A stretch of 64,000 bases of DNA from Shigella phage CT01. Position 1 is the stretch's first letter. Each line of letters opens with the position of its first letter. The stretch is from the sequence record OK018184; one strand, given 5' to 3'. Position numbers and translations under genes: made by a program. Positions 2,557-52,306 of the stretch are shown piece after piece. The notes beneath the pieces are model-generated. The model was not told the DNA's origin and made no database searches. It worked only from the letters and a program-made list of their open reading frames with translations.

Positions 2557-3135
2557 CTGGCTCATCCATTCTTTACGAAGGTCAGCATTATCTCCCATGA
2601 GCATTTCAAAAAGCTCTTTCCAGTTCTCAGGAAGTTTAACAACATCATATACTGGGTTTTGAATCATCTCACGATATTCAGATTTTTCCAAAGAGCCAAG
2701 TCCTTTAATATAACGGATGCTATGTTTAGGTAGAGCATCTTTGGCACTCTCATATTCAGCGACTGTATAAAACCATTCTTGTTTTTTACCGACCTGAGCG
2801 ATGATTACAGGAGTTTTGACAAAGCGAATTCTTCCTTGTTCAAACAGTTCTGGCCAATTACTAAAAAATCCGAGCAGAGAAGGATAAATGCTTCCTAGAC
2901 CATCATGGTCAGCATCAGTCATAATAGCAATATTATGATAATTCAAGTTTTCAGCTTTTTCACCGAGAACTAATCCAGTGATTGCGCAAATATCAAACAG
3001 TTCTTTGTTTTTAAGCATGTCAGCATATGACATGCCCCAACTGTTGAGAACTTTACCACGTAATGGATAACCACCGTGAAGTTCTTTATCACGAACATCA
3101 ATAAGATATCCGATAGCCGAATCACCCTCAGTCAA
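2554..3135 (-). CDS. 60: DNA topoisomerase II large subunit, C-terminal fragment (T4 gp60-equivalent region), separated from the N-terminal part by the insertion
   Basis: 193-aa ORF with ...IMTDADHDGLGSIYPSLLGFFSNWPELFEQGRIRFVKTPVIIAQVGKK... matching T4 gp60; DHDG codons are contiguous (no 50-nt bypass gap); begins at an internal Met inside repeat copy 1. Confidence 0.75.
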   Translation of the reverse strand: MTEGDSAIGYLIDVRDKELHGGYPLRGKVLNSWGMSYADMLKNKELFDICAITGLVLGEKAENLNYHNIAIMTDADHDGLGSIYPSLLGFFSNWPELFEQGRIRFVKTPVIIAQVGKKQEWFYTVAEYESAKDALPKHSIRYIKGLGSLEKSEYREMIQNPVYDVVKLPENWKELFEMLMGDNADLRKEWMSQ

Positions 3136-3227
3136 GAAAAGAGTAGTATCAGCATCTTTACCACAAAGATTCGCTTTAATATGTTTATGAACCTTAGCTT
3201 TAGAAGCCTTTTTAGCTGCTTTAGTTT
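2856..3227. repeat. direct repeat copy 1 (372 bp, identical to 3901..4272) within the topoisomerase large-subunit coding sequence
   Basis: Exact identity read from sequence; both copies encode TEGDSAIGYLIDVRD...SLLGFFSN. Confidence 0.9.
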
Positions 3228-3281
3228 ATGACTGCATTTTATGCCGCTAATTTATGAGCTGCAGTTGTTCGATGTGGTGGT

Positions 3282-3380
3282 TTCTTCAATCTGAAAGCCG
3301 AGGTCTGAAAGTTTTTGCTGGAAGCGAGCGATGGAATCTTCCAGAGCGGCATCTTTGCCGGGGATAAATGTTTGCGTCAT
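3282..3380 (-). pseudogene. ycaO: 5' fragment (33 codons) of a ycaO-like gene
   Basis: Encodes MTQTFIPGKDAALEDSIARFQQKLSDLGFQIEE, which I recall as the E. coli YcaO N-terminus; truncated at the PstI junction. Confidence 0.7.
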
Positions 3381-3509
3381 GAAAATCACTTTAGTCGTAC
3401 GGAAAGCGCGCAATAATACGGGTTTTATCTCAAAGGCGCTATCACCGCCGCCATGCCGATGAACTGTTGACTATGCTTTTAGCGGATAAACCACGTTAAG
3501 AGCATAAAA

Positions 3510-3786
3510 ATGAAGGCGTTCGATCTCCACCGTATGGCATTTGATAAAGTGCCTTTTGATTTCCTTGGCGAAGTTGCACTACGTAGTCTTTATACCTTTG
3601 TACTGGTTTTTTGTTCCTCAAAATGACCGGAAGACGCGGTGTGCGACAGATGTCGCTGTTTGAAGTGTTAATCATTCTCACGCTGGGTTCAGCGGCGGGA
3701 GATGTGGCGTTTTATGATGATGTGCCGATGGTGCCGGTACTTATCGTCTTTATCACTCTGGCGTTGTTATACCGCCTGGTAATATG
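3510..3786 (+). pseudogene. ycaP: 5' fragment of a ycaP-like (DUF421 membrane protein) gene, divergent from ycaO', with a frameshift
   Basis: Encodes MKAFDLHRMAFDKVPFDFLGEVALRSLYTFVLVF then, after a 1-nt frame change, MSLFEVLIILTLGSAAGDVAFYDDVPMVPVLIVFITLALLYRLV; divergent arrangement with ycaO as in E. coli (recalled). Confidence 0.55.
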
Positions 3787-3871
3787 ATGGCGAGCTGGCC
3801 TGGTCGAAACTCAATAACTCCAACATGACGGAATTTGAGTTCTTTATGGAGCTACTAGTTGAATGGACTAT

Positions 3872-5419
3872 TCAGCAATGCACATTAATTGATTTTAAAA
3901 AATTACTAAAAAATCCGAGCAGAGAAGGATAAATGCTTCCTAGACCATCATGGTCAGCATCAGTCATAATAGCAATATTATGATAATTCAAGTTTTCAGC
4001 TTTTTCACCGAGAACTAATCCAGTGATTGCGCAAATATCAAACAGTTCTTTGTTTTTAAGCATGTCAGCATATGACATGCCCCAACTGTTGAGAACTTTA
4101 CCACGTAATGGATAACCACCGTGAAGTTCTTTATCACGAACATCAATAAGATATCCGATAGCCGAATCACCCTCAGTCAAGAAAAGAGTAGTATCAGCAT
4201 CTTTACCACAAAGATTCGCTTTAATATGTTTATGAACCTTAGCTTTAGAAGCCTTTTTAGCTGCTTTAGTTTCTGCTGCTTTTTCTGCCGCTAATTTACG
4301 AGCCAAAGCAGCTTCAATAATCGGCATTAGAATTGCTTCATTATTTAGAATAGCACGTGAAATCTTTTTAGCATCAAGTTGAATATGACTACGGATTTCA
4401 CCAAATGGAGAAGTCAAACGCTCTTTAGTTTGAGAATCAAATCGCATGTTTTTCATATCACGGACAAACATAACGATAGTCAAACATTCTTTAACGCGTG
4501 CTTTAGTCACATCAATTTTGAACTTACGTTTGATTTGTGGAATAAGGTCTTCACAAATATCATCCATAACACAGTCAATGTGATGGCCACCATTCTTAGT
4601 GTGAATGTTATTCACATAAGTTAATTGACGAAAACCATCCGGTGAACGACCAACCGCAATAGAGCAATTTTCTTGTTCTTGAACGATAGCATGCTCATCA
4701 TATTGGCGTGCATATTTCTTAAAATTACCCTGAACCTTTTTACCATTAAAGGTAAATTGAATATCAGGATAAACTACTGCAAGTGTCTGGAGACGATCTA
4801 GTGTAATGTCAAGATAAACTTGAGATAGCTCATTAGTTTCAAATGACATAAAATCAGGAATGAAAGTAACGCGAGTTCCTTTCCATTTTCCAGGAATATC
4901 TTCCCATGATTTATTTTCCATGCCGTTTGAACAACGAACCACAATATTATTTTGACCGTCGCCAGTTTCACCGACAAACATCACAGAAAAAATGTTAGTT
5001 AAACTAGAACCAACACCGTTCATACCGCCAGTGACGCGTTCTTTATCATCACCAAAGTTACCACCTGCTTTTGGAATAGTCCATGCAGCAACTGGACCAG
5101 GAATTTCTTCACCAGTAGGTGTTTTAACCATCGCCTGTGGAATACCACGACCGTTATCTTCAACTGTTACTTGATTGTTTTTGATAGTAACATTAATTTT
5201 ATTTGCGAATTTAAACTTAGTACGAATACCTTCATCTACCGAGTTATCGATAATTTCATCAATAAGCTTAACAAGACCAGGTACATACTGAACACTTTCC
5301 CATTTACCAAACAGAAAGCGCTCATGCATTTCATTAGCTGAAGAGCCAATGTACATGCCGCTACGCTTTTTGATATGTTCAATATCGCTCAGAATTTTAA
5401 TTTCATTCTTAATCATCAC
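3872..5419 (-). CDS. 39: DNA topoisomerase II large subunit (gp39), N-terminal 515-aa product truncated by the insertion (ends ...SLLGFFSN-FLKSINVHC)
   Basis: GyrB-like ATPase and TOPRIM sequence; the last 8 codons are read from junction sequence. Confidence 0.85.
   Translation of the reverse strand: MMIKNEIKILSDIEHIKKRSGMYIGSSANEMHERFLFGKWESVQYVPGLVKLIDEIIDNSVDEGIRTKFKFANKINVTIKNNQVTVEDNGRGIPQAMVKTPTGEEIPGPVAAWTIPKAGGNFGDDKERVTGGMNGVGSSLTNIFSVMFVGETGDGQNNIVVRCSNGMENKSWEDIPGKWKGTRVTFIPDFMSFETNELSQVYLDITLDRLQTLAVVYPDIQFTFNGKKVQGNFKKYARQYDEHAIVQEQENCSIAVGRSPDGFRQLTYVNNIHTKNGGHHIDCVMDDICEDLIPQIKRKFKIDVTKARVKECLTIVMFVRDMKNMRFDSQTKERLTSPFGEIRSHIQLDAKKISRAILNNEAILMPIIEAALARKLAAEKAAETKAAKKASKAKVHKHIKANLCGKDADTTLFLTEGDSAIGYLIDVRDKELHGGYPLRGKVLNSWGMSYADMLKNKELFDICAITGLVLGEKAENLNYHNIAIMTDADHDGLGSIYPSLLGFFSNFLKSINVHC
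3901..4272. repeat. direct repeat copy 2 (372 bp, identical to 2856..3227)
   Basis: Exact identity read from sequence. Confidence 0.9.
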
Positions 5420-6562: not shown

Positions 6563-6734
6563 TACAATTTCCTCATTAATTGAACATTGGAGCGGTGCGT
6601 TTCAGAAGAGTATCAGCACCTTTAACGAATTATCCATTTTATTCTTCAAGTTGTTTTCTGTATCAGTAGTTGATATTGATATAGTACCATAATCAACTAC
6701 TGATGTATATAGTTTTATGAAAAAATTTTAAACT

Positions 6735-12079: not shown

Positions 12080-12682
12080 TTATAGATTAAATCCTTCAAA
12101 ATCAAGAGTATAGATAGTGTATGTTGAATACTTTTTATATTCATATCTATCCGCAATTCTAAATACACTTCCAGCTGGTATCATTACTTCTTGTTCATCT
12201 GAAACTAATTCCATATTACGATAGCGATGGCTATCTGGAAACTTAAAACTTGGACTATATTCTTTACAACGTAGAGCTTTTATAGCATACTCCTGAAAAT
12301 TAAATACCATAGGAGCTTTGAATTCAAAAATAACTTGTGTATTGTATTCTAATCCAGAAGCAAAATGTAGAGCTATATTTTTATCATATGAAGCTGATAC
12401 TACTTTATCAAATGTAATAATATCAATTCCTTGATTTAATACCTGCTTAGTCTCAACTGGAACACCTCTCCAAAGAGGTTTATCGTTTGGAACCAAACGA
12501 GATTTGATTATTTCATTTAACCAAGAGTGGTCGTCTGGCTTATTAGTAATACAATGAATTAAAAGTTCAATTTCAGATAAATTGAATCCTTCAGAAAGTA
12601 ATTCTTCACGAATAGAAGCACGCGCTGATGCATCCATTGATTTGATTTTAAAATCTTTTAATTGCATTGCTGAATATTTCAT
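12080..12682 (-). CDS. modA: ADP-ribosyltransferase ModA
   Basis: 200-aa ORF, size and position as T4 ModA; paralog of the adjacent ORF. Confidence 0.7.
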   Translation of the reverse strand: MKYSAMQLKDFKIKSMDASARASIREELLSEGFNLSEIELLIHCITNKPDDHSWLNEIIKSRLVPNDKPLWRGVPVETKQVLNQGIDIITFDKVVSASYDKNIALHFASGLEYNTQVIFEFKAPMVFNFQEYAIKALRCKEYSPSFKFPDSHRYRNMELVSDEQEVMIPAGSVFRIADRYEYKKYSTYTIYTLDFEGFNL

Positions 12683-13302
12683 TCAACTACCTCAATATCA
12701 TACACTTTAAATGTTCCAAATGAATCGTGTAATTTTTCTTTTGAAATAGAAGTTATTTTATACTTTCCAATTGGAATCATCCATTCTTGTTCACGCACAA
12801 TCATCATTAAGTTATCAGTACGTTCTGAATCTAATCCATCAGTATCTTCATATGTATACTTAAACTCAGTATTAGGAGAAGAAAGTATAATATCGCTGAT
12901 ATGGTCAGAGTAATTAAAAGCTTTATCAGTTTTTAAGCGAAATATTATTTCAGTGAAATACTCAACATAAGAAAAACCACACGCTGTGTGCAAACTAGTA
13001 GTAAATGAATCTACCCTGTTCGTTGAAAACACTTCTCCAACTTGTAAATCTTTAATGAGTTCTTTTGTCGATTTTGATATACCACGATATAGCTGATAAG
13101 GTGATTTAGTTAAATGCTTTTTAACGATTTTATTCAATTGCCGGTGAAGAGCTTCATTCTTTTTGGCTTCCATACATTGCCAAAGAACTGACTGTTCAAA
13201 GTCAGTAAATTTTTCACAGACCTTTTTATACATATCATATTGAAAATCAACACTTTCAGCTTTTATAGATAACTGTTCAACATCTACAAGATTAATAATC
13301 AT
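12679..13302 (-). CDS. modB: ADP-ribosyltransferase ModB
   Basis: ORF 12679..13314 in the track; the internal ATG gives 207 aa as in T4 ModB. Confidence 0.65.
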   Translation of the reverse strand: MIINLVDVEQLSIKAESVDFQYDMYKKVCEKFTDFEQSVLWQCMEAKKNEALHRQLNKIVKKHLTKSPYQLYRGISKSTKELIKDLQVGEVFSTNRVDSFTTSLHTACGFSYVEYFTEIIFRLKTDKAFNYSDHISDIILSSPNTEFKYTYEDTDGLDSERTDNLMMIVREQEWMIPIGKYKITSISKEKLHDSFGTFKVYDIEVVE

Positions 13303-24577: not shown

Positions 24578-24584
24578 GTTTTCC

Positions 24585-24965
24585 TCACTTAGTCAAATTT
24601 TTTACACATGAATTATAAGAATTTACTACATACTCCATCGGAGCATTTTTACCGGTACGCCATTGGTAATTATTAGCCCAATTAGCCCAAAGCTCAGCGC
24701 AGTAGTTTTCAATTTTTTCTTCGCGTGTAATCACATCTGAATTGCGATATGCTTGGGCAGATTCATCTGGACGAATAGCTTCGTCAAAATTCGCCTGCAT
24801 TTGTTCTACTGTCTGTTTTGGAGCCTCTTTATAACACTTAACATTAGGATTATAAAATTTGCTTGAACAGTTTACAATTTTTCCTACATCAGACTGATTT
24901 ACTACCGGTCCTTGAGCTACACAACCAGTAAGACCCAATGCAATAACCAAAATAGCGATTTTCAT
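24585..24965 (-). CDS. predicted lipoprotein
   Basis: ATG at 24963..24965; MKIAILVIALGLTGC signal and lipobox; the track ORF 24585..25124 extends upstream through junction sequence from a GTG. Confidence 0.6.
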   Translation of the reverse strand: MKIAILVIALGLTGCVAQGPVVNQSDVGKIVNCSSKFYNPNVKCYKEAPKQTVEQMQANFDEAIRPDESAQAYRNSDVITREEKIENYCAELWANWANNYQWRTGKNAPMEYVVNSYNSCVKNLTK

Positions 24966-25019
24966 TTCATTCTCCAAATCCGCATCAGTTGATAGTTGTA
25001 TAGTACCATGGAAGAACAG
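24870..25019. repeat. direct repeat copy 1 (150 bp, identical to 25138..25287)
   Basis: Exact identity; covers the lipoprotein gene 5' end, RBS and promoter -10. Confidence 0.9.
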
Positions 25020-25137
25020 ACCTAATTGAACACCCAGCGTTCCATTAGTATTCATATGAAGATTATCATCAATTTTTATTGATACTTTACCATTCATGTG
25101 AATAACAGTATTAGATTCAATCACATCTCTGACTATC
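25020..25137. other. 118-bp segment between the direct repeats, origin unknown
   Basis: Open on the minus strand (VIESNTVIHMNGKVSIKIDDNLHMNTNGTLGVQLG), closed in all plus frames. Confidence 0.6.
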
Positions 25138-25233
25138 GTTTACAATTTTTCCTACATCAGACTGATTTACTACCGGTCCTTGAGCTACACAACCAGTAAG
25201 ACCCAATGCAATAACCAAAATAGCGATTTTCAT
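25117..25233 (-). pseudogene. truncated duplicate of the lipoprotein gene 5' end (38 codons)
   Basis: MKIAILVIALGLTGCVAQGPVVNQSDVGKIVN then DSQRCD-stop from junction sequence. Confidence 0.6.
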
Positions 25234-25287
25234 TTCATTCTCCAAATCCGCATCAGTTGATAGTTGTATAGTACCATGGAAGAACAG
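25138..25287. repeat. direct repeat copy 2 (150 bp)
   Basis: Exact identity to 24870..25019. Confidence 0.9.
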
Positions 25288-39506: not shown

Positions 39507-39533
39507 ATCAAATCCTCAAAGGCAATTCATATG

Positions 39534-39647: not shown

Positions 39648-39660
39648 GCCCAGAGGGCCC
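39648..39660 (-). terminator. hairpin ggcccagagggcc
   Basis: Inverted repeat immediately downstream of nrdH. Confidence 0.35.
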
Positions 39661-39663
39661 GTC

Positions 39664-40246: not shown

Positions 40247-40336
40247 GCATTGATAAGTACTAAACTATACTGCGAATAAAATTCTGGACCAAAATGAAAA
40301 ATCATATCATTTATAGTATCAATAATATAATTCAAT

Positions 40337-40807
40337 TTAATCATGTTTCCACACCCCATCGGTATTTGACCAAAGTCGCTGATTATCTGAACCTCGCCAC
40401 AGCTTTTTGGTCGGAAGATTTTTCTCATACTTCCCATCAATAATAACATCAACATATTTAAGCATTTCTAGTTGTTTAATATCTTCAAACTTGTATCCTG
40501 TCCACAACCAAATGCTTTTATTGGGATAAAGATTTTTTACTGTTTGAACGATGCAATGAATAACATCTCGGTTATCAGGATAGAGAGGGTCTCCTCCAGT
40601 TATAGTTAATCCTTCTATATAATCATTATTCAAACATTCAATTAATTGCTCTAGTGTTTCACCGGTGAATGGAACGCCATTTCTAGCATTCCATGTTGAT
40701 TTATTATAACATCCTTCACATTTATGCAAACACCCCGTAACGAAAAGAACGACCCTGCATCCAGGGCCATTCACAAAATCACAGGGATAAAATCTATCGT
40801 AATTCAT
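40337..40807 (-). CDS. nrdG: anaerobic ribonucleotide reductase activase NrdG (radical SAM)
   Basis: 156 aa; cysteine cluster CLHKCEGC. Confidence 0.85.
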   Translation of the reverse strand: MNYDRFYPCDFVNGPGCRVVLFVTGCLHKCEGCYNKSTWNARNGVPFTGETLEQLIECLNNDYIEGLTITGGDPLYPDNRDVIHCIVQTVKNLYPNKSIWLWTGYKFEDIKQLEMLKYVDVIIDGKYEKNLPTKKLWRGSDNQRLWSNTDGVWKHD

Positions 40808-42621
40808 TGGTGTTTAACCCTATGCATGATTTCTTTATTTTTGCCGAGATTAAATCCGCGTTCATTCGGATTTCCCAAATAACCACAAGTTCTTCTTATT
40901 GTGTTCATCTTTTTAGGATCAGTTTCTCCACAAATAGAACAAACAAATCCGTTTTCAGTAGGAGTCATTTCATGGGTACTTCCACACGTAAAACATTTAT
41001 CTACTGGCATGTTAACACCAAAATAATCTAAATGTTGTGCAGCATAATCCCATACAGCCTCAAGACCTTTTAGGTTATTTTTCATATCAGGAAGTTCAAC
41101 ATAAGAAATGTGACCGCCTGTCGCAATGAAATGATATGGGGCTTCGCGAGAAATCTTTTCAAACGGAGTAATATTTTCTTCTACTGAAACGTGGAAACTG
41201 TTAGTGTACCAGCCTTTATCAGTAACATCCTTTACACTTCCATATTTTTCGGTATCGAGTTTACAGAAGCGATAACACAGGTTTTCAGCAGGTGTAGAAT
41301 ACAAGCTAAAAGCAAAACCAGTTCTTTCAGTCCACTGCTTAAGATGTGCATTCATTTTAGTTAAAATTTCCTGTCCAATATCACGACCGACAAGAATATT
41401 CAATTCGTGAATACCAATGTATCCTAGGGATACTGAACTTCTACCGTTTTTAAATAACTCAATTATATCATCATCGGGTTTAAGACGAACCCCGAATGCA
41501 CCTTCTTGGTAAAGAATAGGAGCAACAGTAGCTTTAACTCCTTTTAATGAACTAATTCTACACATCAATGCTTCAAAACACAAATCCATTCGTTCATTGA
41601 ACAATTCGGCAAATTTCTGTTCATTGAACTGTGTTCCAATATAAGAATCTAATGCAATACGAGGAAGATTCAGTGTTACAACGCCAAGATTATTACGTCC
41701 ATCAAGAATTTCATTACCAGTCGAATCTTTCCATACACTTAAGAAACTGCGGCAACCCATTGGAGAAACAGGAACAGATGAACCGGTGATAGCTTTATTG
41801 TTCTTAGCCGAAATGATGTCAGGATACATTCTTTTACTTGCACACTCTAGAGCAAGCTGCTTAATATCATAGTTCGGATCGTCTTTATAAAGATTAACAC
41901 CTTCTTCAACGAACATAACAAGTTTAGGAAAAATAGGAGTTATCCCATCGCGGCCAAGACCTTTAATGCGATTTTTCAGAATTGCTTTCTGAATCATTCG
42001 TTCAGTCCAGTCAGTTCCCGTACCAAATGTAATTGTTACAAAAGGAGTTTGTCCGTTTGAACTAAAGAGAGTATTTACTTCATATTCATAAGCTTGGAAT
42101 GCATCGTATACGTCTTTTTCTGTTTTAGATTGGGCATAATTCAACGCGTCAGCGATTTGCCATTTTTCTGCGTCCTCAATATGTTTTGCATAGGTGCGTT
42201 TAACATAAGGAGAAAGTACTTTATCTACATTCGCAAAAGTCGTTCCGCCATATTGATGAGAAGCAACCTGCGCAGTAATTTGTGCCATAATTGCAGTAGC
42301 AACACCGATTGATTTAGGAGTTTCAATCTGTGCATTACCGAGCTTAAATCCATTCTCAAGCATTCCTTTTAAATCTACTAAACAGCAATTAGTAAATGGA
42401 AGAGCAGGGGAATAATCAATATCATGGAAATGGATAATTCCGCTTTCATGCGCTTTCATAATAAAAGACGGGACCATATTTTTGGCAATGTGTTTAGACA
42501 CAATACCAGCCATAAGGTCCCGTTGAGTTGGAAAAACACGAGAATCTTTATTAGCATTCTCGTTTAAAAGGTCTTTATTAGTTTTATGAATTAATCCTTC
42601 AATTTCTTTTTCAATCGTCAT
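40804..42621 (-). CDS. nrdD: anaerobic ribonucleotide reductase NrdD, uninterrupted (no intron)
   Basis: 605-aa continuous ORF; C-terminal glycyl-radical and CxxC zinc ribbon (CFTCGSTHEM...CSICG). Confidence 0.9.
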   Translation of the reverse strand: MTIEKEIEGLIHKTNKDLLNENANKDSRVFPTQRDLMAGIVSKHIAKNMVPSFIMKAHESGIIHFHDIDYSPALPFTNCCLVDLKGMLENGFKLGNAQIETPKSIGVATAIMAQITAQVASHQYGGTTFANVDKVLSPYVKRTYAKHIEDAEKWQIADALNYAQSKTEKDVYDAFQAYEYEVNTLFSSNGQTPFVTITFGTGTDWTERMIQKAILKNRIKGLGRDGITPIFPKLVMFVEEGVNLYKDDPNYDIKQLALECASKRMYPDIISAKNNKAITGSSVPVSPMGCRSFLSVWKDSTGNEILDGRNNLGVVTLNLPRIALDSYIGTQFNEQKFAELFNERMDLCFEALMCRISSLKGVKATVAPILYQEGAFGVRLKPDDDIIELFKNGRSSVSLGYIGIHELNILVGRDIGQEILTKMNAHLKQWTERTGFAFSLYSTPAENLCYRFCKLDTEKYGSVKDVTDKGWYTNSFHVSVEENITPFEKISREAPYHFIATGGHISYVELPDMKNNLKGLEAVWDYAAQHLDYFGVNMPVDKCFTCGSTHEMTPTENGFVCSICGETDPKKMNTIRRTCGYLGNPNERGFNLGKNKEIMHRVKHQ

Positions 42622-43091
42622 TTTAAACTCTTTCTAAGCTGCTTCTTAAATGAAGCTATTAATTGTGTTTTAGTGTCAGATTCATTATATTCAAATCCTC
42701 TTTGAAGCATCTCAGCCATCATTTCCTCTTTTCCTAAACGAGAAAATTCCTTTGATTTATCTCCAACGAAGTTAGGGTGAATATTATTTTGGGTGTAATC
42801 GGATTTTAAATAAGTAAGTAAATTTTCTAACCATTCAAGATAATCAACACCTTGTCCCTTTAAGCCAGAACGATTAAATTTATGTTTCATTTGACCTTCT
42901 GCAGCATTGCAGAGATTACATAGCAACCCACGTACCTTTCCTGCTTTTGGTCCATTTAATTCATGGTCATGGTCAAGGTGATTAGCTTGAACATCAGGAT
43001 TTAGTTCTCGTTGGCAAATTAAGCATTTACCGTTTTGTGCATTATAAAATTTTTGTTTTTCTTCTTTGTACAATTTGCCAGTCAATAACAT
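42618..43091 (-). CDS. 49: endonuclease VII gp49 (Holliday junction resolvase)
   Basis: 157 aa; zinc motif CLICQ...HLDHDH...CNLCN; length as T4 EndoVII. Confidence 0.9.
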   Translation of the reverse strand: MLLTGKLYKEEKQKFYNAQNGKCLICQRELNPDVQANHLDHDHELNGPKAGKVRGLLCNLCNAAEGQMKHKFNRSGLKGQGVDYLEWLENLLTYLKSDYTQNNIHPNFVGDKSKEFSRLGKEEMMAEMLQRGFEYNESDTKTQLIASFKKQLRKSLK

Positions 43092-43356
43092 AATAAACCC
43101 TTACCTTAAATAGATAAGGGTATTTATTATTTTCAAGTATTAAAATGCTCGTTCAGAAAAAGAAATTTGAGTTTCAAGAAGTTCTCGTTGGCAAATTAAG
43201 CATTTACCGTTTTGTGCATTATAAAATTTTTGTTTTTCTTCTTTGTACAATTTGCCAGTCAATAACATAATAAACCCTTACCTTAAATAGATAAGGGTAT
43301 TTATTATTTTCAAGTATTAAAATGCTCGTTCAGAAAAAGAAATTTGAGTTTCAAGC
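43003..43356. repeat. tandem duplication, 2 x 177 bp, spanning the gene 49 start and upstream hairpin
   Basis: 43003..43179 and 43180..43356 identical except for the last base. Confidence 0.9.
43140..43268 (-). pseudogene. duplicated gene 49 5' end (30 codons) fused in frame to the last 12 codons of the upstream gene
   Basis: MLLTGKLYKEEKQKFYNAQNGKCLICQREL-LETQISFSERAF. Confidence 0.6.
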
Positions 43357-43781
43357 CATTCAATATATTCTGCTGCAGCTTGCATCAAATTTCCTTCATA
43401 GCCATCGTTATTTTCTTGTGCAGCTAATTTAGCTAATGCATATGAAATACGTTCACCCTGAAAAGCGGCTTTAGGTTTATGAATAGCTTGATCAACTCGT
43501 TCTACAACTTCTTCAATTTCGCCATTTTCTACTGATTCAGTATTCCACAAGCACCAATACGTAATTGGCTTATCATAGATGTTAATAACCTTTCCGTCAG
43601 AAAGTTCAATTTCAATAATTCCAGTATCAGGTTCTATATCATCTTCACATTCTTTTGCAAGTTCACGAACTTTAAAGACAGTACCTGCACTAAGTTCCGG
43701 CCAGTAATTACACAACCCTTTATCAGCACGATTAATTCTAAACCACTTATCTACTGTAATCATGTCCCATCTCCATATCAA
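43317..43781 (-). CDS. hypothetical protein
   Basis: 154-aa ORF upstream of gene 49. Confidence 0.5.
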   Translation of the reverse strand: MIWRWDMITVDKWFRINRADKGLCNYWPELSAGTVFKVRELAKECEDDIEPDTGIIEIELSDGKVINIYDKPITYWCLWNTESVENGEIEEVVERVDQAIHKPKAAFQGERISYALAKLAAQENNDGYEGNLMQAAAEYIEWLETQISFSERAF

Positions 43782-43886
43782 TTATGTCATTTATTGTAGG
43801 TTCATTATATACTGTTTCTTCATCAGTGTAAACCGGTTCTTCCGGCTCTGGCTCTACTGTTTCCCATCTAGCCGCCCACCAAGGTT

Positions 43887-44207
43887 TTATAGCGTAATCC
43901 ATTCTCGTATTGTCTGAGTTACTACACGTTCACGGGGCTCGACTAGTTCAACAGTCGGAACTGCATAATACCAGTCAGAATGGTAAGAACCTGAGCGAGA
44001 TTCATTTACAGACACATGTACATTATGTTTTGGACTAAAATAAACACACTGACGATATTGACATTTGCCATCTTGCACCCAGTCTTCTATTTCGACAGGT
44101 TTAAGATAATCCGAAAAATCGAAATCATAGTTTTCTGAAAATGCATCATGGTCTTCGATGATTTCGCTCAGAACTGCATCAACATCTAATTTATTTTCAA
44201 TAGTCAT
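43887..44207 (-). CDS. hypothetical protein
   Basis: 106-aa ORF. Confidence 0.45.
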   Translation of the reverse strand: MTIENKLDVDAVLSEIIEDHDAFSENYDFDFSDYLKPVEIEDWVQDGKCQYRQCVYFSPKHNVHVSVNESRSGSYHSDWYYAVPTVELVEPRERVVTQTIREWITL

Positions 44208-44217
44208 TTGTCACCAC

Positions 44218-44427
44218 TTAATTTCGCAATTTATTAAGTTCTTCATAATCAATCCAGGATTCTAATCCTGATGGCAAATCAGATTCAATTTCCCAAAGAA
44301 GCTCTTCAATTTTCTGAAGACGATCTAATTCTTCAGCTGGAATAGTAACCATTGACGGAGTTCTTGATACACTAATATCGTAAATCATATTTACCCCAGT
44401 TTGACCATACAATCGCCGTATTTCCAT
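44218..44427 (-). CDS. hypothetical protein
   Basis: 69-aa ORF. Confidence 0.4.
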   Translation of the reverse strand: MEIRRLYGQTGVNMIYDISVSRTPSMVTIPAEELDRLQKIEELLWEIESDLPSGLESWIDYEELNKLRN

Positions 44428-44606
44428 TTAGAAATAGACTTTTCACCATTAGAATAATAAACTTCTAGTTTAGCGCGGCCATTTTTAATTTGAATAACCT
44501 TTGCTGTCATTAAAGTTCCATACCCATAATAAACTGCAACCTCATCCCCCACATATACCGCGCTTCCGCGGTAGTCATGGATATAATCAGTTCCTTCAAG
44601 CATCAT
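44391..44606 (-). CDS. hypothetical protein
   Basis: 71-aa ORF. Confidence 0.4.
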   Translation of the reverse strand: MMLEGTDYIHDYRGSAVYVGDEVAVYYGYGTLMTAKVIQIKNGRAKLEVYYSNGEKSISKWKYGDCMVKLG

Positions 44607-44866
44607 TTAAAGTATTCCCGCAATTGGTCAAATCCACCAATATGACTTCCATCAGGAGCAAATACCTGAGGCATCGTCAATCCGATTTGAGTATCACGAC
44701 CTAGTTTAGTCAGAAGCTCAGCAATTTTCTCATCATCAAAAACACCTTTTTCCGGCATAATATTGATAAATTCAAACGGCTGTTTCTTCACAGTCAAAAG
44801 ACGTTTTGCATTATCGCAATACACACATTTATGGATGTTGCTATCATAACCATATACTTTAAACAT
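44603..44866 (-). CDS. nrdC: thioredoxin/glutaredoxin NrdC
   Basis: 87 aa with CVYC active site. Confidence 0.85.
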   Translation of the reverse strand: MFKVYGYDSNIHKCVYCDNAKRLLTVKKQPFEFINIMPEKGVFDDEKIAELLTKLGRDTQIGLTMPQVFAPDGSHIGGFDQLREYFK

Positions 44867-44867
44867 A

Positions 44868-45110
44868 TTATTCCTTAATTCCTAGTACTTGTTTAAAAGT
44901 CTCGTCGTAATCAAGACTTTGACCTGTTTGTTCTTTATGTTTGTATATAATATCACTTACTTCTGATAGCATATTTTTATATGAACGAGTTAAAGCAGAT
45001 TTAAGCACACTATATCTATCAGGAAATTTACCATGTTCATTATAATAAGCTATTGCTAATTCACGGACTGCCTTTTCAGCAGTCTCCATATATTCTTTAC
45101 GCTTTGTCAT
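44868..45110 (-). CDS. hypothetical protein
   Basis: 80-aa ORF. Confidence 0.45.
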
Positions 45111-45414
45111 TTTCTTCTCGGTTAAATCGGTGTTTACAATGACGACATTTATAACGAAGAATACTAGTTTGCCAATGAATCAATTGAACCTGTTCAGTAC
45201 CACATTTTGGGCAGTTCGGAACATTCTTAGAAGCCCTTTCGCGGCGTTCAACCATAACCATAATGGCATCCCAAGCAGGAGGTTTAAAGTCTAGATCGTC
45301 ATCGCCATGAATCTTTCCACGCATTTCTAGATCGTCTTCTTCACCAGCCATAATAATTTTAATTAGACTGGAATTACTTGAAGCTGCAATATCTTCTAAT
45401 AAGCGCTTTTTCAT
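45097..45414 (-). CDS. zinc-ribbon protein
   Basis: 105 aa with CPKCG...CRHCKH. Confidence 0.5.
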
Positions 45415-46340
45415 TTCAGTACCTCAATAGCATCACGTAAACCATTTGCTTTTGCATTAAGAGCTTTTAACAATTTGGTATGTTCGGCAATCTGAGCTTC
45501 AACTTCAATCAAACGAGCATTGAGATATTCACGTTCTTCGCTCAGGTTATCAACCTTTTCTACTTTAGATTCTTTTACAACTGGCTTATATGTATTAGGG
45601 TTCTTCAGTTTAATTAGAATGCGTGAACTGTATAACATTGAACCATTATCTTCGGTTTCATCATACATTTCCACTACGTCCATCATCTCCACCATCGTGC
45701 AGAGTTTATAAGACAGCGAACGAATAGTTTTGTTATGCTTATTAATTTCTCTAGCTGTCATGGTGCCGAGATTACGTGAGTAATAATAAGGAACCTGGAT
45801 ATTAATTAATACTGATGAACCACCTGGCTTGTGTGTTACTTCATCAGCAATAACCCAATCCTTAACATGAACTGTATTTGTACGGTCATCGCCTGCGGTA
45901 AATAGTTTGCGAGCATGCTTAAAAAGCATATTCACTTGGTCATTGAATTGACAAGCAAATTTATCAGCAAATTTAGTTTCAGGAATGGTAGATAACCAAT
46001 CAGCCAAATGGGTCTTTTTAACATCGTTAACAATAGTAAATTCAACCAAATCAGTTATAGATGTCTCAGATTTAATAAAGCTCGGCTTCATAAAGTTTTT
46101 AATGTTATCACGAGCTATCACAGAAGATAGTAATCGGGAACGTTTGAACCACTCTAGCAAAGAACCAAGAGAATGTGAATACGCATTTTGTGTATCTTTA
46201 CAAATATGGTTTTCCCATCCAATATAGTCTAAAAAATCACGAAGAATATTATTGATTACTGCTCTATGTCCTATCTGATAATTACGATGTTTAGTAATAA
46301 GACTATCAAAATAATCAATATAATGTTTACGAGTTTTCAT
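45411..46340 (-). CDS. hypothetical protein with C-terminal coiled coil
   Basis: 309-aa ORF. Confidence 0.55.
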   Translation of the reverse strand: MKTRKHYIDYFDSLITKHRNYQIGHRAVINNILRDFLDYIGWENHICKDTQNAYSHSLGSLLEWFKRSRLLSSVIARDNIKNFMKPSFIKSETSITDLVEFTIVNDVKKTHLADWLSTIPETKFADKFACQFNDQVNMLFKHARKLFTAGDDRTNTVHVKDWVIADEVTHKPGGSSVLINIQVPYYYSRNLGTMTAREINKHNKTIRSLSYKLCTMVEMMDVVEMYDETEDNGSMLYSSRILIKLKNPNTYKPVVKESKVEKVDNLSEEREYLNARLIEVEAQIAEHTKLLKALNAKANGLRDAIEVLK

Positions 46341-46392
46341 GTTCTTCTCACTTGGTTAATGATTTATACTCCGAGCCATCCTTGGCTTTAAA

Positions 46393-47394
46393 TTACTTAA
46401 TTAACTGTAAAGCTTGTTCAAGACGATCCAGACGATTAACAGATTCTTCCCAAATCCTTTTAGCCTGCTCATATTCTTTCTGCGCTTTATTAGAAATTTC
46501 TAGAACTTCTTTATAAGCCTTTTCTAGTGCAATAACTTCTGGACGAATTTCTACAGGTTCAGGCGAATCATCAAGATTATCCATTAGTTCCTCAAGTGTA
46601 ATTTCTTCTTTAGGAGTATTCACAATTTCATCACATTTTTGTTGGTAAATTTCTTTATCAGTCGGTGAGTACGCACATTTCACTTCACGAAGACTAACTA
46701 CAATTTTATATCCTTCCCAACCGCATATATTCTTAAAAGGATACGTATGAATATTTTCTACTGTTTCCATACAAAGTAATGCGGTTTCTAATTGACGAGT
46801 TATAGTGCTAGCAATTGAGAAAAATTTATTAATATTCCTTTGGTTAGTTTCTGGTGTAAAAAATCCATAATTCACAAAAATAGATACTTTATTTTTATCA
46901 AGTTCATATTCTTTTATGATAATCATATCAGAAGCCAAAGGATGAATTTGACGATAATCGCCATAACATAATTTAGAAGCTGATTTTAGAATCTGTCCTT
47001 TGAAAAGCCTGAAATTACTAATCCAACGACGAGTAAAAATATTCTCAGGGTCTTCTTTATTATTAAGATGATAAGAATTAACATCACCGAACCAATTATA
47101 TCCTACTACATCTTTGGTTCGTTTAATTTCTTTCCCAAAATTACCAAGAATATCCCGATTAACCAAATATGAAAGAAGACGAGACTCTTTAAAGGTTTTC
47201 TTGATAACATCTTTATCTACACGACTAGAAATTTTACGAATTTCATGAATAAATTTAGTAGAAGAAACAATACCTGCATCAACACTATTGAGCCATTGAT
47301 TGATAATAGAAATAACGCTATTTTGACCAAACATCGGTATAGCTTTATCATCAATAACACTATTGAATGATTTGATATATTCGTTACGAGTCAT
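46393..47394 (-). CDS. hypothetical protein with C-terminal coiled coil
   Basis: Track ORF 46393..47445; start at MTRNEY downstream of the promoter. Confidence 0.55.
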   Translation of the reverse strand: MTRNEYIKSFNSVIDDKAIPMFGQNSVISIINQWLNSVDAGIVSSTKFIHEIRKISSRVDKDVIKKTFKESRLLSYLVNRDILGNFGKEIKRTKDVVGYNWFGDVNSYHLNNKEDPENIFTRRWISNFRLFKGQILKSASKLCYGDYRQIHPLASDMIIIKEYELDKNKVSIFVNYGFFTPETNQRNINKFFSIASTITRQLETALLCMETVENIHTYPFKNICGWEGYKIVVSLREVKCAYSPTDKEIYQQKCDEIVNTPKEEITLEELMDNLDDSPEPVEIRPEVIALEKAYKEVLEISNKAQKEYEQAKRIWEESVNRLDRLEQALQLIK

Positions 47395-47419
47395 ATTAAT
47401 CTCCTCAGTAGAAAGTAAG

Positions 47420-47455
47420 AACATTATACCACATCCTTGTGGCAAAGTAAACTAG
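47420..47455 (-). promoter_or_regulatory. T4-type early promoter
   Basis: Reverse strand GTTTAC-18 nt-TATAAT (gtaaac 47447..47452, attata 47423..47428). Confidence 0.6.
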
Positions 47456-48480
47456 TTCAGTGCATTTAGTGCATTGTTCAGTTTAGAACGTTGCTTTGTC
47501 AGATTTTGAACCCTTGACTGAGCTTGTTCTAACACCTTTTCAGCTTCTAGCACTTCATTGGTCGCTTTAACGAGTTCATCATCTACTGCCTTAAGAGACT
47601 TCTCAATCGCGTCAGCGTGCCATTTTTCTACAGGTTTAAAATTTGAATTTTCAGTAGGAAGAAAACTCACTTTATTAAGTTTACATGCATCTATATTGCT
47701 TGAGCTATACATCCAAAATTTAGGATCGTTTGATGAGTAATTGGATAAATTTAAATTTAAGTTATCTTGCACTTCTTGCTTTTTCTCTTGCGGGACTTCG
47801 TCCTTTCTCAAAAAATCGTATTTAAATGAAACGATCATATCAAGTTCATACGTTGTTGTGTCTAATTTAAATCGTTCAAAACGAGGTAAAATCTTAGATT
47901 GAACAGCAGCAACAACATCCATATACTTAAATGCTTCTGTCAACTGCGATTTAAGGCATTCGCAAATTGAAAGAGAATTTTTTGTATTAGGTTTAAAGCT
48001 AATTCGTGCAGTTCTGTTATTTTCTTTTAATGGTCTTACTTCCATCTGAAGAGTATAACCATCAAATTTCAGGTTCTTTAAGTTAATATCAGAACCTTTC
48101 AATCGACTCGCAGTTGATAAAATTTGCTTTAATTGTCTACGGAACAGAGCAATAAATCTCCATTCAATACGATAATGATTTGGATTGAAAAATCCAGATG
48201 ATAAATCGACCTTACTTTGACCAACGCCTTGAACAAATAGAGGATTTTTATAATCAATAGTTTTACAGAAATCGGTGAGTTGCTCACGAGCAGTCATTTG
48301 TGTAATATACCCCGCTTTACTAAAATTACGCATCCATTCACTGCTATTCGTATACTTAAAGTGATGAATAACACGATTAACTTTATCAGGGTCTAAATTA
48401 TTTTCACACAAAAATGTCATAACATCACGAGTATAGCTGGCATTACGAACCATATCTTCAATTTGAGAACGAGTTTTCAT
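47452..48480 (-). CDS. hypothetical protein with C-terminal coiled coil
   Basis: 342-aa ORF. Confidence 0.55.
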   Translation of the reverse strand: MKTRSQIEDMVRNASYTRDVMTFLCENNLDPDKVNRVIHHFKYTNSSEWMRNFSKAGYITQMTAREQLTDFCKTIDYKNPLFVQGVGQSKVDLSSGFFNPNHYRIEWRFIALFRRQLKQILSTASRLKGSDINLKNLKFDGYTLQMEVRPLKENNRTARISFKPNTKNSLSICECLKSQLTEAFKYMDVVAAVQSKILPRFERFKLDTTTYELDMIVSFKYDFLRKDEVPQEKKQEVQDNLNLNLSNYSSNDPKFWMYSSSNIDACKLNKVSFLPTENSNFKPVEKWHADAIEKSLKAVDDELVKATNEVLEAEKVLEQAQSRVQNLTKQRSKLNNALNALN

Positions 48481-50377: not shown

Positions 50378-50401
50378 TTTCTGTTCCTCCGTAGTTGATA
50401 G

Positions 50402-50438
50402 TTGTATAGTACCATAGAGGAACAGTCTTGTAAACCAC
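50402..50438 (-). promoter_or_regulatory. T4-type early promoter
   Basis: Reverse strand GTTTAC (gtaaac 50430..50435) ... TACTATACA. Confidence 0.5.
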
Positions 50439-50752
50439 TAAAAGAAACTTCTTTCACAATTTTTTCCACTGAACCATGCGCTCACTGCTTTCTTAGTCTC
50501 AGGAGCAGTGTTATCCATAAACCATTCAAAGGCAGCCTTTTTATGATTCTGGAGGGCTTCTCGGGCTTTAATCTGCTCACGGTCTATTAACACTAACATA
50601 TGAGCCTTTCTTGTCACCATGGGCTTCTTATGATTTTTTGAATACTCCCAGTCATTTGTCCATCGCATTGTCGTTGCGAACTTAAATACTGCTTCTTTAA
50701 TTTTAGTTTCGTAAATTTCACGAGCCTTTGAGTATAACATCATTACCTCCAT
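50438..50752 (-). CDS. hypothetical protein
   Basis: 104-aa ORF. Confidence 0.45.
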   Translation of the reverse strand: MEVMMLYSKAREIYETKIKEAVFKFATTMRWTNDWEYSKNHKKPMVTRKAHMLVLIDREQIKAREALQNHKKAAFEWFMDNTAPETKKAVSAWFSGKNCERSFF

Positions 50753-50841
50753 TCACCAGTTTAATTCTAGTTATCTTTTTAATGGCAGTCCATATAATCT
50801 ATTTCTGAACTGCCTTTTTGTCATAGAAGTCCTCTTATGAA

Positions 50842-51822
50842 TTATTTCAGAAGAGTAACCTCAGCAATTTCTTCCCAACCGTTTTTGTCGGTCATAATAA
50901 AGTCAGCAAGATAAAGAGCAGTACGCAGTGAAACATTGCGTAAACGATTAACATTAACTTTCATCCATGATAATGCTTTATAAGTTTCTTCATCAGAAAG
51001 ACCGCGCTTTTGCATCATGTCAGTTGAAAGAATAACATCTTCAACCCTGACCATAATTTCTTCATTAGTGTGAACACCCAAATCCAAATAAACCGAGCGG
51101 GACACTAATGCTTGTAAATGTGGAGCAAGTTTAGTACCACGGTCTAATTCGCGGTCAATGTCAACGTTTGTGATAAAAACAATCGTTCCTTTAAATTCAA
51201 ACTCACGCTCAATGCCTTTTTCTTCTAAGTAAGAAGATGCGGTGCTCCAGCAGACTTTACGGGTCTCTCCAGTGTCCAGAGCAGCTTTCAGAAGATTAAG
51301 AATGTCCATATCAGAGAAAACATCCACATCATCAATCAAAAGGACAGAATTCTCTTCACGATTATTCCAAAGCTGTTCATAAAGACCGATACCAGAGATT
51401 TTACCATTAATGCTTTTATATTCAATGTATCCATTATCATTTGCTTTATTCAAAGCTTTATCTAAAGAATACGTTTTACCAATACCCGCCGCACCAGAGA
51501 TAATTAATGAACGAATATTTCCGTTAATAATACCATTCGTCATCATTCCCATAACATTAAATCTTTTATTAATGCGGGTTTTCATATCTTCATATGATTC
51601 TTTAACTTCTTCAACTTTTACACCATCATATGAAATGTCTGATTTGTAAACCCAAACACCGCGACGCTTACCGTCAATTTCAACAAAAACTTTACCATCT
51701 CCTTGTGCATCTACCGGAGCATTATCTGGGAACCATTCACCTAAGAGCTCAAAAGTTCCAGAGATTTCTTTACCGAAGTAGATACCCTTATTGATAGTTA
51801 CAGTTTTCATTTTATTCTCCAA
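50842..51822 (-). CDS. P-loop ATPase
   Basis: 326 aa with Walker A GAAGIGKTYS and Walker B-like LLIDDVD. Confidence 0.6.
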   Translation of the reverse strand: MENKMKTVTINKGIYFGKEISGTFELLGEWFPDNAPVDAQGDGKVFVEIDGKRRGVWVYKSDISYDGVKVEEVKESYEDMKTRINKRFNVMGMMTNGIINGNIRSLIISGAAGIGKTYSLDKALNKANDNGYIEYKSINGKISGIGLYEQLWNNREENSVLLIDDVDVFSDMDILNLLKAALDTGETRKVCWSTASSYLEEKGIEREFEFKGTIVFITNVDIDRELDRGTKLAPHLQALVSRSVYLDLGVHTNEEIMVRVEDVILSTDMMQKRGLSDEETYKALSWMKVNVNRLRNVSLRTALYLADFIMTDKNGWEEIAEVTLLK

Positions 51823-51842
51823 TTTTACATTTGTTTTGATAG

Positions 51843-51879
51843 GGTAATAGTATCACACTACTACCCTGCTGTAAACAAT
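51843..51879 (-). promoter_or_regulatory. T4-type early promoter
   Basis: Reverse strand GTTTAC (gtaaac 51871..51876) ... TACTAT. Confidence 0.5.
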
Positions 51880-52143
51880 TTATTTTAATGTTTGCCAAAT
51901 TTTTACTGCTTCGCGACGAGATACTTCTACGGCGCCAAGTTCTATAGCTTTTTGGCGTCGCCGAGCGTGTAAGTCATAATGTTTAATGCGTTTATCTTGA
52001 AACCAAGAACGTTTCATTCCTATTGCTTCTGCCATTTCATGAAGCTCTTCAATATCTCCATCAGTGAACATATGACAATTTTTAGTTGGATGACCGCGAA
52101 GTTTCCATCCATGATTCATTAAAACATCTACGTAAACTGTCAT
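51880..52143 (-). CDS. hypothetical protein (intact copy)
   Basis: 87-aa ORF MTVYVDVLMNHGWKLRGHPTKN... Confidence 0.55.
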   Translation of the reverse strand: MTVYVDVLMNHGWKLRGHPTKNCHMFTDGDIEELHEMAEAIGMKRSWFQDKRIKHYDLHARRRQKAIELGAVEVSRREAVKIWQTLK

Positions 52144-52306
52144 TGATTCTTCTCCAAATACATTCCTATTGCTTCTGCCATTTCATGAAGCTCTTCAATA
52201 TCTCCATCAGTGAACATATGACAATTTTTAGTTGGATGACCGCGAAGTTTCCATCCATGATTCATTAAAACATCTACGTAAACTGTCATTGATTCTTCTC
52301 CAAATA
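52015..52306. repeat. perfect tandem duplication, 2 x 146 bp, spanning the 5' end of gene 51880..52143
   Basis: 52015..52160 identical to 52161..52306. Confidence 0.9.
52140..52289 (-). pseudogene. duplicated 5' fragment (43 codons) of gene 51880..52143 ending in YLEKNQ-stop
   Basis: Second ATG at 52287..52289 inside repeat copy 2. Confidence 0.55.

Follow-up and report, generated by a model that had tools for sequence, protein, structure and literature searches.

The 64,000-nucleotide stretch of the Shigella phage CT01 record (OK018184) that was analysed, here called the window, contains four direct repeats, A-D, whose copies lie a short distance apart and are 100% identical in every pair (Table 1). 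Most likely, these duplications do not belong to the phage genome. On balance, we favor the reading that they are overlaps left unmerged on the joining of 3-21 kb pieces, with chimeric junk at the piece ends.

Repeats, junctions and near-identical relatives

The window covers the early-gene region of a T4-like phage, from rIIA to about vs/regB, with its genes on the minus strand. The duplications of 372, 150, 177 and 146 bp reported in the original prediction are all present, the 177 bp of site C being a 176-bp repeat plus 1 nt. When extended maximally, the identity equals the period at D (146) and falls one base below it at C (176/177). We found no direct repeats of at least 80 bp in 138 kb of syntenic T4 and SF2-1 DNA, and the repeats are therefore far beyond chance. 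The sites lie 3-21 kb apart, the extra DNA summed over the four events is 1,636 bp, and collapsing the duplications restores the normal gene order. Homology at the joint is 0 nt at D; at C the copies are separated by one untemplated base, and at A and B they are joined via a spacer.

Table 1. Repeats, spacers and joints in the window (strand in column three; a dot marks no strand)
Feature	Position	Strand	Content
Repeat A	2856-3227 = 3901-4272		372 bp, 673-bp spacer
Repeat B	24870-25019 = 25138-25287		150 bp, 118-bp spacer
Repeat C	43003-43178 = 43180-43355		176 bp + extra base 43179, period 177
Repeat D	52015-52160 = 52161-52306		146 bp, exact tandem, no spacer
Window start	1..21	.	foreign to relatives; abuts rIIB codon 25
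A copy 1	2856..3227	-	internal gene 39 segment, about codons 383-506
A spacer part 1	3228..3259	-	error-laden continuation of the window's own gene 39
A spacer part 2	3260..3283	.	24 nt, matched by neither relatives nor E. coli
A spacer part 3	3284..3855	.	E. coli chromosomal DNA, ycaO-ycaP, 572 bp
A spacer part 4	3856..3900	+	inverted error-laden copy of the window's modB end/modA start, 12646-12689
A copy 2	3901..4272	-	runs on into the N-terminal part of gene 39
B copy 1	24870..25019	-	early-promoter -10 without -35, 5' UTR, imm.1 codons 1-32
B spacer	25020..25137	-	internal 118-bp fragment of an RB18 ORF048-type gene
B copy 2	25138..25287	-	after intact promoter, -35 at 25296-25291, -10 at 25273-25268
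C copy 1	43003..43178	-	last 12 codons of pin, terminator-like intergenic hairpin, first 30 codons of gene 49
C joint base	43179	.	single A (+ strand), templated by neither flank
C copy 2	43180..43355	-	creates 42-aa junction ORF
D copy 1	52015..52160	-	last 6 codons of a 49-aa gene + first 43 of the 87-aa DUF4031 gene
D copy 2	52161..52306	-	blunt joint, 0 nt homology; creates 49-aa junction ORF

Junction probes were run against the INPHARED phage records (n = 50,697), IMG/VR, JGI metagenomes and GTDB genomes, the collections probed differing by junction. All six junctions are absent from the 50,697 phage records, those of C and D are absent from IMG/VR, and that of D is absent from the JGI metagenomes and GTDB genomes as well; a control probe for the natural D boundary was found in IMG/VR. 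The junction ORFs and the shortened gp39 have no match in the gene-position collection, and no T4-like DNA was found in complete E. coli genomes.

Outside the seams the window is clean, with very high base-level quality, and relatives cover everything except 1-21, 3260-3855 and 43179. Wild metagenomic contigs are near-identical to the backbone, which is a natural mosaic, and these relatives carry single copies at the repeat sites. For instance, contig L013 differs from window 24446-28681 at 2 positions and is single-copy at site B, contig L027 differs from 50415-58289 at 1 position and is single-copy at D, and contig L031 is 99.9% identical to 39406-47765 and single-copy at C. SF2-1 has 1 difference from window 22-3018 and lacks the insertion. 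Near-identity to L013, L027 and SF2-1 appears to switch at B, D and A, respectively, suggesting seams between different parental genomes. This candidate was ruled out by base-level profiles, which place the switches 424 bp from B and 1.6 kb from D, and at A within the repeat unit.

The original prediction held that each duplication covers a gene 5' end. This is true of B (imm.1), C (gene 49) and D (the DUF4031 gene), but A lies wholly within gene 39. Three of four units spanning a gene start is not significant (P = 0.13 by chance); for B, C and D alone, all three spanning a gene start has P = 0.025, and each leaves every gene intact. Three of the four units also overlap zones that are indel-polymorphic (P = 0.016). 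The gene 5' ends were also considered as products of RNA or reverse transcription; this was rejected, because a single transcript cannot explain a B unit that begins upstream of the -10 box or an E. coli fragment that covers two divergent genes. The in-frame junction ORFs that were also predicted do exist (515, 38/179, 42 and 49 aa), but they are uninformative since any junction would read through to the next stop.

Spacers and joints at the individual sites

Site A interrupts gene 39, which in this phage is of the fused 39+60 type and encodes the topoisomerase II large subunit. The ORF at 3872-5419 (515 aa) consists of 506 aa of gp39 and a 9-aa junk tail, the C-terminal part of the gene downstream of the event has no credible start codon, and deletion of 3228-4272 yields an uninterrupted 605-aa gene 39 ORF. 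The spacer is a patchwork of four parts. In the first, 25 of 28 bases are identical to 4276-4303, with four substitutions and one insertion, and no exact natural allele was found in IMG/VR. The second shows no likeness to sequencing adapters. The third contains the 5' end of ycaO (minus strand, start codon 3378-3380) and the 5' part of ycaP (ATG at 3510), with the intergenic region between them; it is 99.7% identical to E. coli and was found in all of the 5,426 genomes searched (5,426/5,426), and in no T4-like phage. This part has lost one T from the T run at 3607-3612 and carries a 65-bp internal deletion with an imprecise joint at about 3785/3786. The deletion is absent among the best-matching E. 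coli genomes listed, as the match is split into two pieces in each. A horizontally acquired host gene was considered and rejected: only 5' parts of ycaO and ycaP are present, with a frameshift and the 65-bp deletion. In the fourth part, 40 of 45 bases are identical to 12646-12689; the best natural allele among the 50,697 phage records is 91% identical, and IMG/VR holds no exact match. The two self-copies (gene 39 and modB/modA) are about 89% identical to the phage's own sequence. The idea that the spacers are natural alleles of another phage was rejected on the 91% best match for modB/modA and on three degenerate stretches without an exact IMG/VR match.

No more than about 100 bp separates event A from the point at which the mobA cassette splits T4 gene 39/60, with T4 homology breaking at window 2889-2954, and the N-terminal 515-aa ORF that the event leaves is close in size to T4 gp39. 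Unlike the T4 split, event A has no mobA, gene 60 leader or bypass element, and its insert is E. coli DNA.

The spacer of site B holds the sole spacer fragment that is a real allele of other phages. It is 97.5% identical to RB18 25117-25233, and two of its three differences fall within 12 nt beside the joint. In other T4-like phages the ORF048-type gene occupies the same locus, the gene 43 to imm.1 interval, in the same orientation; among close relatives it is present in some and absent in others. Copy 1 runs on into full-length imm.1, and the edge of copy 2 (25287) falls in the promoter spacer.

At site C, copy 1 runs on into full-length gene 49 (endonuclease VII), and the junction ORF joins gp49 residues 1-30 to the last 12 residues of Pin. 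Copy 1 of site D runs on into the complete DUF4031 gene. Neither the 42-aa ORF of C nor the 49-aa ORF of D has a record elsewhere.

At the window start, relatives align from position 22 only; they continue rIIB, and the window reads into stop codons. Judged from these alignments, 21/22 inside rIIB is a fifth breakpoint, and window 1-21 may be the end of another spacer. This segment has no exact match in GTDB, and its phage matches are only chance 16-17-mers. The foreign or patchwork spacers of A and B and the fifth breakpoint had been missed in the original prediction.

Origin of the duplications

We propose that neighboring pieces of some 3-21 kb, whether contigs, long reads or amplicons, went into the deposited sequence. 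Overlapping piece ends of 146-372 bp would have been set end to end, unmerged, a joining step that we infer, and a low-quality or chimeric piece end would leave junk between the overlap copies. The sample probably also contained host DNA and a second T4-like phage with the ORF048 allele. Such a mixed sample would explain why the pieces break at T4-like indel sites; indel-polymorphic zones are where breaks would be expected in assemblies of mixed T4-like populations. A systematic process is suggested by the fifth breakpoint and by the regularity of the 3-21 kb intervals, and the common cause that was predicted is supported by events that are all direct, identical, joined without homology, absent from near-identical genomes and regularly placed. 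Among the three causes that the original prediction offered (population heterogeneity, laboratory construction and systematic assembly artefacts), an artefact of sequence construction is favored, with a mixed sample of host DNA and a second T4-like phage as a probable contributor. The theme of gene 5' ends finds no statistical support. As expected of an artefact, the copies are identical, independent near-identical assemblies lack them, and collapse restores the gene order. Moreover, homologous recombination in T4 is efficient at 50-150 nt of identity or more, so that four to five unselected perfect repeats would be quickly lost from a real stock.

The duplications may be of the kind that arises at contig joins and closed gaps when overlapping ends fail to collapse. 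Such false duplications are likewise perfect direct repeats with the approximate length of a read or fragment, placed at regular intervals, with a homology-free joint, sometimes with junk between the copies, and absent from near-identical genomes; spacer A is unusually complex by comparison. No adapter, vector or primer remnants were found in the junk, where adapter similarity is no higher than in shuffled controls; such remnants are not obligatory for an artefact. Several findings count against an artefact, however. The overlap lengths (146, 150, 176 and 372) match no common assembler k-mer size, and the joints are not simple de Bruijn graph walks because no k-mer is shared at them. For contig-end junk, spacer A is elaborate: it has four parts, with accurate host DNA making up 572 bp. 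The intact genes at B, C and D are also expected from selection on real events. The very high base-level quality outside the seams and the lack of adapter or vector sequence in the junk likewise speak against an artefact.

It is rather unlikely, in our judgment, that the duplications are instead real and very recent, having arisen in the isolate by homology-free joining. Opposite-strand nicks 146-372 nt apart could have been followed by fill-in of the recessed ends and blunt ligation, the joint optionally capturing free fragments such as host breakdown DNA or DNA of a co-infecting T4-like phage; replicative template switching is another route. The breaks would be concentrated at module boundaries, the sites of homing-endonuclease action and recombination. 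Fill-in and blunt ligation predict the anatomy exactly, namely a direct duplication, a homology-free joint and optional filler, and three of the four units do sit on indel-polymorphic sites. At B, the filler derives from the locus's own alternative allele, with a 7/11 base match at one joint, and all genes are intact at B, C and D. Event A lies in gene 39, a DNA-delay gene that is non-essential in T4, and the extra 1,636 bp fits the terminal redundancy of T4, about 3% of the genome. However, the known break-repair and duplication pathways of T4 use homologies of 2-13 nt, none of which is seen here, and an error level of roughly 10% in the filler fragments finds no explanation with an accurate phage polymerase. 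It is also improbable that four to five unselected, recombination-prone perfect repeats were fixed in one genome. Near-identical wild relatives have none of them, and the junctions and junction ORFs are never found elsewhere. The specific proposal of staggered-break repair in a T4-like phage, in which ends at module boundaries were filled in and ligated independently of homology, sometimes with capture of filler, is in our view slightly more doubtful still. To our knowledge, an end-joining-like pathway with filler capture is undescribed for T4, in which known repair needs 3-13 nt homologies and UvsX. Were the events real, they would point to homology-independent joining with filler-DNA capture in T4-type phages and to an entry route for host DNA.

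A deliberate construct or an in-silico product, such as a design file of overlapping fragments for genome assembly or small homologous-DNA integrants in an engineered phage, with the repeats as homology arms, seems quite improbable. Single-crossover integration of a circle with a homologous segment, as with the T4 insertion/substitution vectors, gives a copy, foreign DNA and a second copy, an arrangement that A and B share and that Selick, Kreuzer and Alberts reportedly obtained in T4 integrants in 1988. The overlap and piece sizes (146-372 bp and 3-21 kb) are those that tiled fragments typically show, and stop codons follow the interruptions of both rIIB and gene 39. Against this, the spacers consist of E. 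coli chromosome, phage fragments and short unplaced DNA, and C and D have no insert. A screen of phage and E. coli collections and of adapters revealed no plasmid or supF sequence and no vector, marker, adapter or primer site in the spacers, the backbone is natural, and the spacers have random-looking errors and no evident design. PstI and SpeI sites in spacer A were rejected as a cloning sign; they would be chance-level for about 100 nt. More improbable by far are classical T4 tandem duplications at short homologies (rII, Hp17 mutants, dmd-tifA) or the integration of PeSL mini-circles. T4-type phages do make tandem duplications and small circles, the former and segmental amplifications being described, it is said, in Kumagai 1993 and Wu 1991, and repeat B begins within an early promoter. 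The duplications here share with the T4 cases (rII diploids, Hp17, dmd-tifA) direct head-to-tail repeats in a T4-type genome, where extra DNA is tolerated because of headful packaging. They differ in being 146-372 bp long, in lacking homology and evident selection, and in having foreign spacers, which the classical model does not expect. In documented T4 duplications and deletions, the joints lie at homologies of 2-13 nt of which one copy is kept (PMC9391042; PMC8262927), and we found no such flanking micro-homology with one copy at the joint at any of A-D. The T4 cases, dmd-tifA among them (PMC9391042, Srikant 2022), are selected, span kilobases and leave one copy of 2-10 bp micro-homologies; the units here hold only gene fragments and no complete gene. 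Minihomology end joining after double-strand breaks depends on UvsX and gives deletions flanked by 3-13 nt repeats (PMC8262927, Wu 2021); it shares rearranged break sites in non-essential early regions, but here we see duplications and blunt joints. PeSL circles, which form when two flanking PeSL motifs cross over, contain entire ORFs of about 400-1400 bp (PMC2839356, Arbiol 2010). They resemble our sites as small units beside early promoters and terminators at phage-variable sites, and a tandem repeat would result if a circle integrated. However, no PeSL motif pair bounds the units, which end arbitrarily inside genes or promoter spacers (C and D in coding sequence, A inside gene 39, B running from the promoter spacer to imm.1 codon 32), and 146-177 bp is too short for ready circularisation. 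As read from the junctions, the short-homology/PeSL model is already contradicted.

If the duplications are unmerged overlaps, as we favor, the record would misreport genes: the topoisomerase gene would seem interrupted and rIIB truncated, small ORFs would be spurious, and a lytic phage would seem to contain host DNA. Comparative studies or safety analyses for phage therapy could take such errors for gene transfer or pseudogenes. At the observed density, roughly a dozen seams would be expected over 168 kb.

The duplications and the backbone that carries them

All four direct repeats named in the original prediction are present in the window, with copies that are 100% identical (for C, 177 bp is the period and the unit is 176 bp). 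In line with the claim that such structures are rare in T-even genomes, the syntenic DNA of T4 (72 kb) and of Shigella phage SF2-1 (66 kb) has no direct repeat of at least 80 bp, and the four repeats are therefore not a general property of such genomes.

Coordinates of the duplications (A-D), the parts of spacer A, and the window tracts matched by independent contigs (L numbers)
Feature	Window position	Size or identity	Remarks
A	copy 1 2856-3227; copy 2 3901-4272	unit 372 bp	673 bp between copies; covers site of T4 mobA/gene 60 insertion
B	copy 1 24870-25019; copy 2 25138-25287	unit 150 bp	118 bp between copies
C	copy 1 43003-43178; copy 2 43180-43355	unit 176 bp (period 177)	1 base (43179) between copies; covers presence/absence site of a 58-aa ORF between pin and gene 49
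D	copy 1 52015-52160; copy 2 52161-52306	unit 146 bp	nothing between copies; inside 640-bp segment missing from T4
Spacer A, part 1	3228-3259	4 substitutions and 1 insertion in 32 nt	continuation of the window's own gene 39
Spacer A, part 2	3260-3283	24 nt	covered by no relative and not by E. coli
Spacer A, part 3	3284-3855	99.7% identity	E. coli chromosome, divergent ycaO/ycaP starts
Spacer A, part 4	3856-3900	5 differences in 45 nt	inverted copy of the window's modB end/modA start (12646-12689)
L008 tract	22-2556	at least 99.9% identity
L013 tract	24446-28681	at least 99.9% identity
L031 tract	39406-47765	about 99.9% identity
L027 tract	50415-58289	at least 99.9% identity

The prediction placed every duplication at a gene 5' end, which is correct for B, C and D and wrong for A, which lies entirely inside gene 39 (minus strand). 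Gene starts occur about every 520 bp; at this density, at least three such units of four would arise by chance with P = 0.13. All are read here on the minus strand. Unit B has its edge in the spacer of an early promoter, between the -35 (25296-25291) and -10 (25273-25268) boxes, and takes in the -10 box, the 5' UTR and imm.1 as far as codon 32. Unit C holds the final 12 codons of pin, a terminator-like hairpin and codons 1-30 of gene 49, and unit D the final 6 codons of a 49-aa gene and codons 1-43 of a DUF4031 gene. The in-frame junction ORFs do exist and are uninformative. Duplication A leaves a 515-aa ORF, in which 506 aa of gp39 are followed by a 9-aa tail, and a C-terminal part that lacks a credible start; removal of 3228-4272 restores an uninterrupted 605-aa gene 39 ORF. 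Once collapsed, this gene (2554-5419) encodes a fused 39+60 type topoisomerase II large subunit and has no mobA, gene 60 leader or translational bypass element; T4 homology is interrupted at 2889-2954, the site of T4's mobA/gene 60 insertion. The DUF4031 gene and adjoining 49-aa gene (51823-52461) are missing from T4 itself and present in many T4-like phages, some of which carry an extra Mod-like ADP-ribosyltransferase gene immediately upstream.

The window corresponds to the early region of a T4-like phage (Tequatrovirus), with nearly all genes on the minus strand in the order rIIB (first 25 codons), rIIA, 39, dda, modA/B, 41, uvsX, 42, imm, 43, 45, 46/47, 55, nrdD, 49 and the nrdC cluster, ending at about tk/vs. 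SF2-1 is the best complete relative (97% identity across 25 kb). The sequence is a natural mosaic, in which single tracts are at least 99.9% identical to independent metagenomic or run-level contigs, with about 97% outside them. Identity drops abruptly from at least 99.9% to about 97% near 3019 (against SF2-1), 24446 (against L013) and 50415 (against L027); these positions are natural mosaic boundaries of T4-like genomes, and none coincides with a duplication. Relatives cover every window base except 1-21, 3260-3855 and 43179. A C run of the window is longer by two residues (44546-44547) than in L031, through a real indel or through a mistake in the window or in L031. In one metagenomic relative (L009, 8090-10458), uvsX is apparently split by an inserted NUMOD3 (homing-endonuclease-like) gene that the window lacks.

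Three of the four units overlap insertion/deletion differences between the window and T4 or SF2-1 (P = 0.016 for at least three), and B lies at a presence/absence site of ORF048, an RB18 gene that is the alternative allele at this locus. This pattern supports the predicted common cause. At such polymorphic sites, an assembly made from mixed T4-like populations would be expected to break, but real recombination and breaks by homing endonucleases are also concentrated there; the pattern therefore does not discriminate between artefact and biology. The 58-aa ORF (DUF7279) varies among close relatives in the pin/gene 49 interval (L015, L016, L018 and L021 versus L017, L019 and L031) and is absent from the window, where the corresponding site is 43141-43330.

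Spacers, junctions and the window edge

The DNA between the copies is the most informative part of the duplications. Spacer A is a patchwork in which the E. coli stretch has a T7 run short by one T and has lost 65 bp internally, the joint of this deletion being imprecise. None of the best-matching E. coli genomes listed has this deletion, and the match is in two pieces in each. The altered gene 39 and modB/modA stretches correspond to no natural allele among 50,697 phage records (best 91% identity) and have no exact match in IMG/VR. Spacer B is a 118-bp internal fragment of an ORF048-type gene, with three differences from RB18, two of them within the 12 nt adjoining the joint. Some close relatives carry this gene in the same locus and orientation, between gene 43 and imm.1; others lack it, among them the near-identical L013. 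Its presence varies there even among phages with identical DNA polymerase protein, and the N-terminus of the product (76-78 aa; L007, L011, L014) is signal-peptide-like. Joint C has one untemplated base and joint D none.

We searched for the six junctions with 54-nt probes centred on each, so that no 28-mer was one-sided. None of the probes matched meaningfully in 50,697 phage records. IMG/VR lacks junctions C and D and does contain the natural D boundary, which served as control; JGI metagenomes and GTDB genomes lack junction D as well. Neither the junction ORFs nor the truncated gp39 are on record among 153 billion gene positions. Most tellingly, L013 across B, L031 across C and L027 across D have essentially the window sequence with a single unit and without a spacer. 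SF2-1, essentially identical to the window up to about 3018, lacks event A.

All relatives begin to align at position 22. In place of the rIIB sequence with which relatives continue, positions 1-21 hold unrelated bases and put stop codons after rIIB codon 25; the 21 bases have no exact match in GTDB genomes and only chance-level matches in phages. Since relatives align only from 22, the window probably opens within the end of a fifth such event, most of which would lie outside it. Successive breakpoints are then spaced 3.2, 21.1, 18.0, 9.0 and more than 11.8 kb apart.

Origin of the repeats

Genuine T4 duplications and amplifications, at rII, Hp17 and dmd-tifA, form at 2-10 bp homologies (PMC9391042), and UvsX-dependent minihomology joining in break repair yields deletions at 3-13 nt homologies (PMC8262927), with one copy kept at the joint in both. 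In contrast, identity of the copies ends at exactly one period in D and one base short of it in C, which leaves no homology at the joints, and filler separates the copies in A and B. PeSL mini-circles, which carry whole ORFs, arise when two promoter/stem-loop cassettes cross over (PMC2839356), whereas units A-D end at arbitrary points within genes and within a promoter spacer. Neither of these families fits, and classical homology-based mechanisms seem very improbable indeed. The repeats are also not seams between different parental genomes, as the identity switches lie hundreds of bases from B and D.

We propose that the duplications are overlapping ends of adjacent pieces left unmerged in the deposited sequence, which is the simplest account of all features together and a probable, if far from certain, one. 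The sequence would have been put together from pieces with overlapping ends; overlaps that were not merged would appear as direct duplications, and low-quality or chimeric ends kept between the copies as spacers. Unmerged pieces would explain the perfect identity, direct orientation and regular spacing of the repeats, joints without homology and the stray base at C, absence from near-identical genomes, the otherwise excellent base quality and the further breakpoint at the window edge; retained junk ends would explain why the spacers combine host DNA, DNA of another T4-like allele and faulty copies of phage sequence. The joints share no k-mer and are therefore not simple graph-walk errors of a de Bruijn assembler. 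The main rival, which we regard as unlikely while taking it seriously, holds the events to be real and recent: staggered breaks would have been filled in and their blunt ends ligated, with free DNA captured on the way. This model predicts the same anatomy, and such joining would be new for T4-type phages. It leaves unexplained both the filler errors and how four or five unstable repeats became fixed without selection. Homologous recombination in T4 requires 50-150 nt (PMC8262927). The perfect repeats, at 146-372 bp, surpass this length. As for T4 duplications and insertion/substitution integrants, such repeats should vanish quickly unless selected, and no selection is apparent for any of the four. 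Deliberate or in-silico construction of the sequence is quite improbable; no adapter or vector remnants were detectable in an adapter screen against shuffled controls or in phage and E. coli collections.

Separately, the window holds a family of 60-nt repeats (60-73% identical) at 6670-6729, 25257-25316, 39526-39585, 50395-50454, 52462-52521 and 56058-56117. On the minus strand, these read as T4-type early promoters (GTTTAC -35, extended TGGTACTAT -10), often directly downstream of a GC-rich terminator hairpin, a PeSL-like promoter/terminator cassette arrangement.
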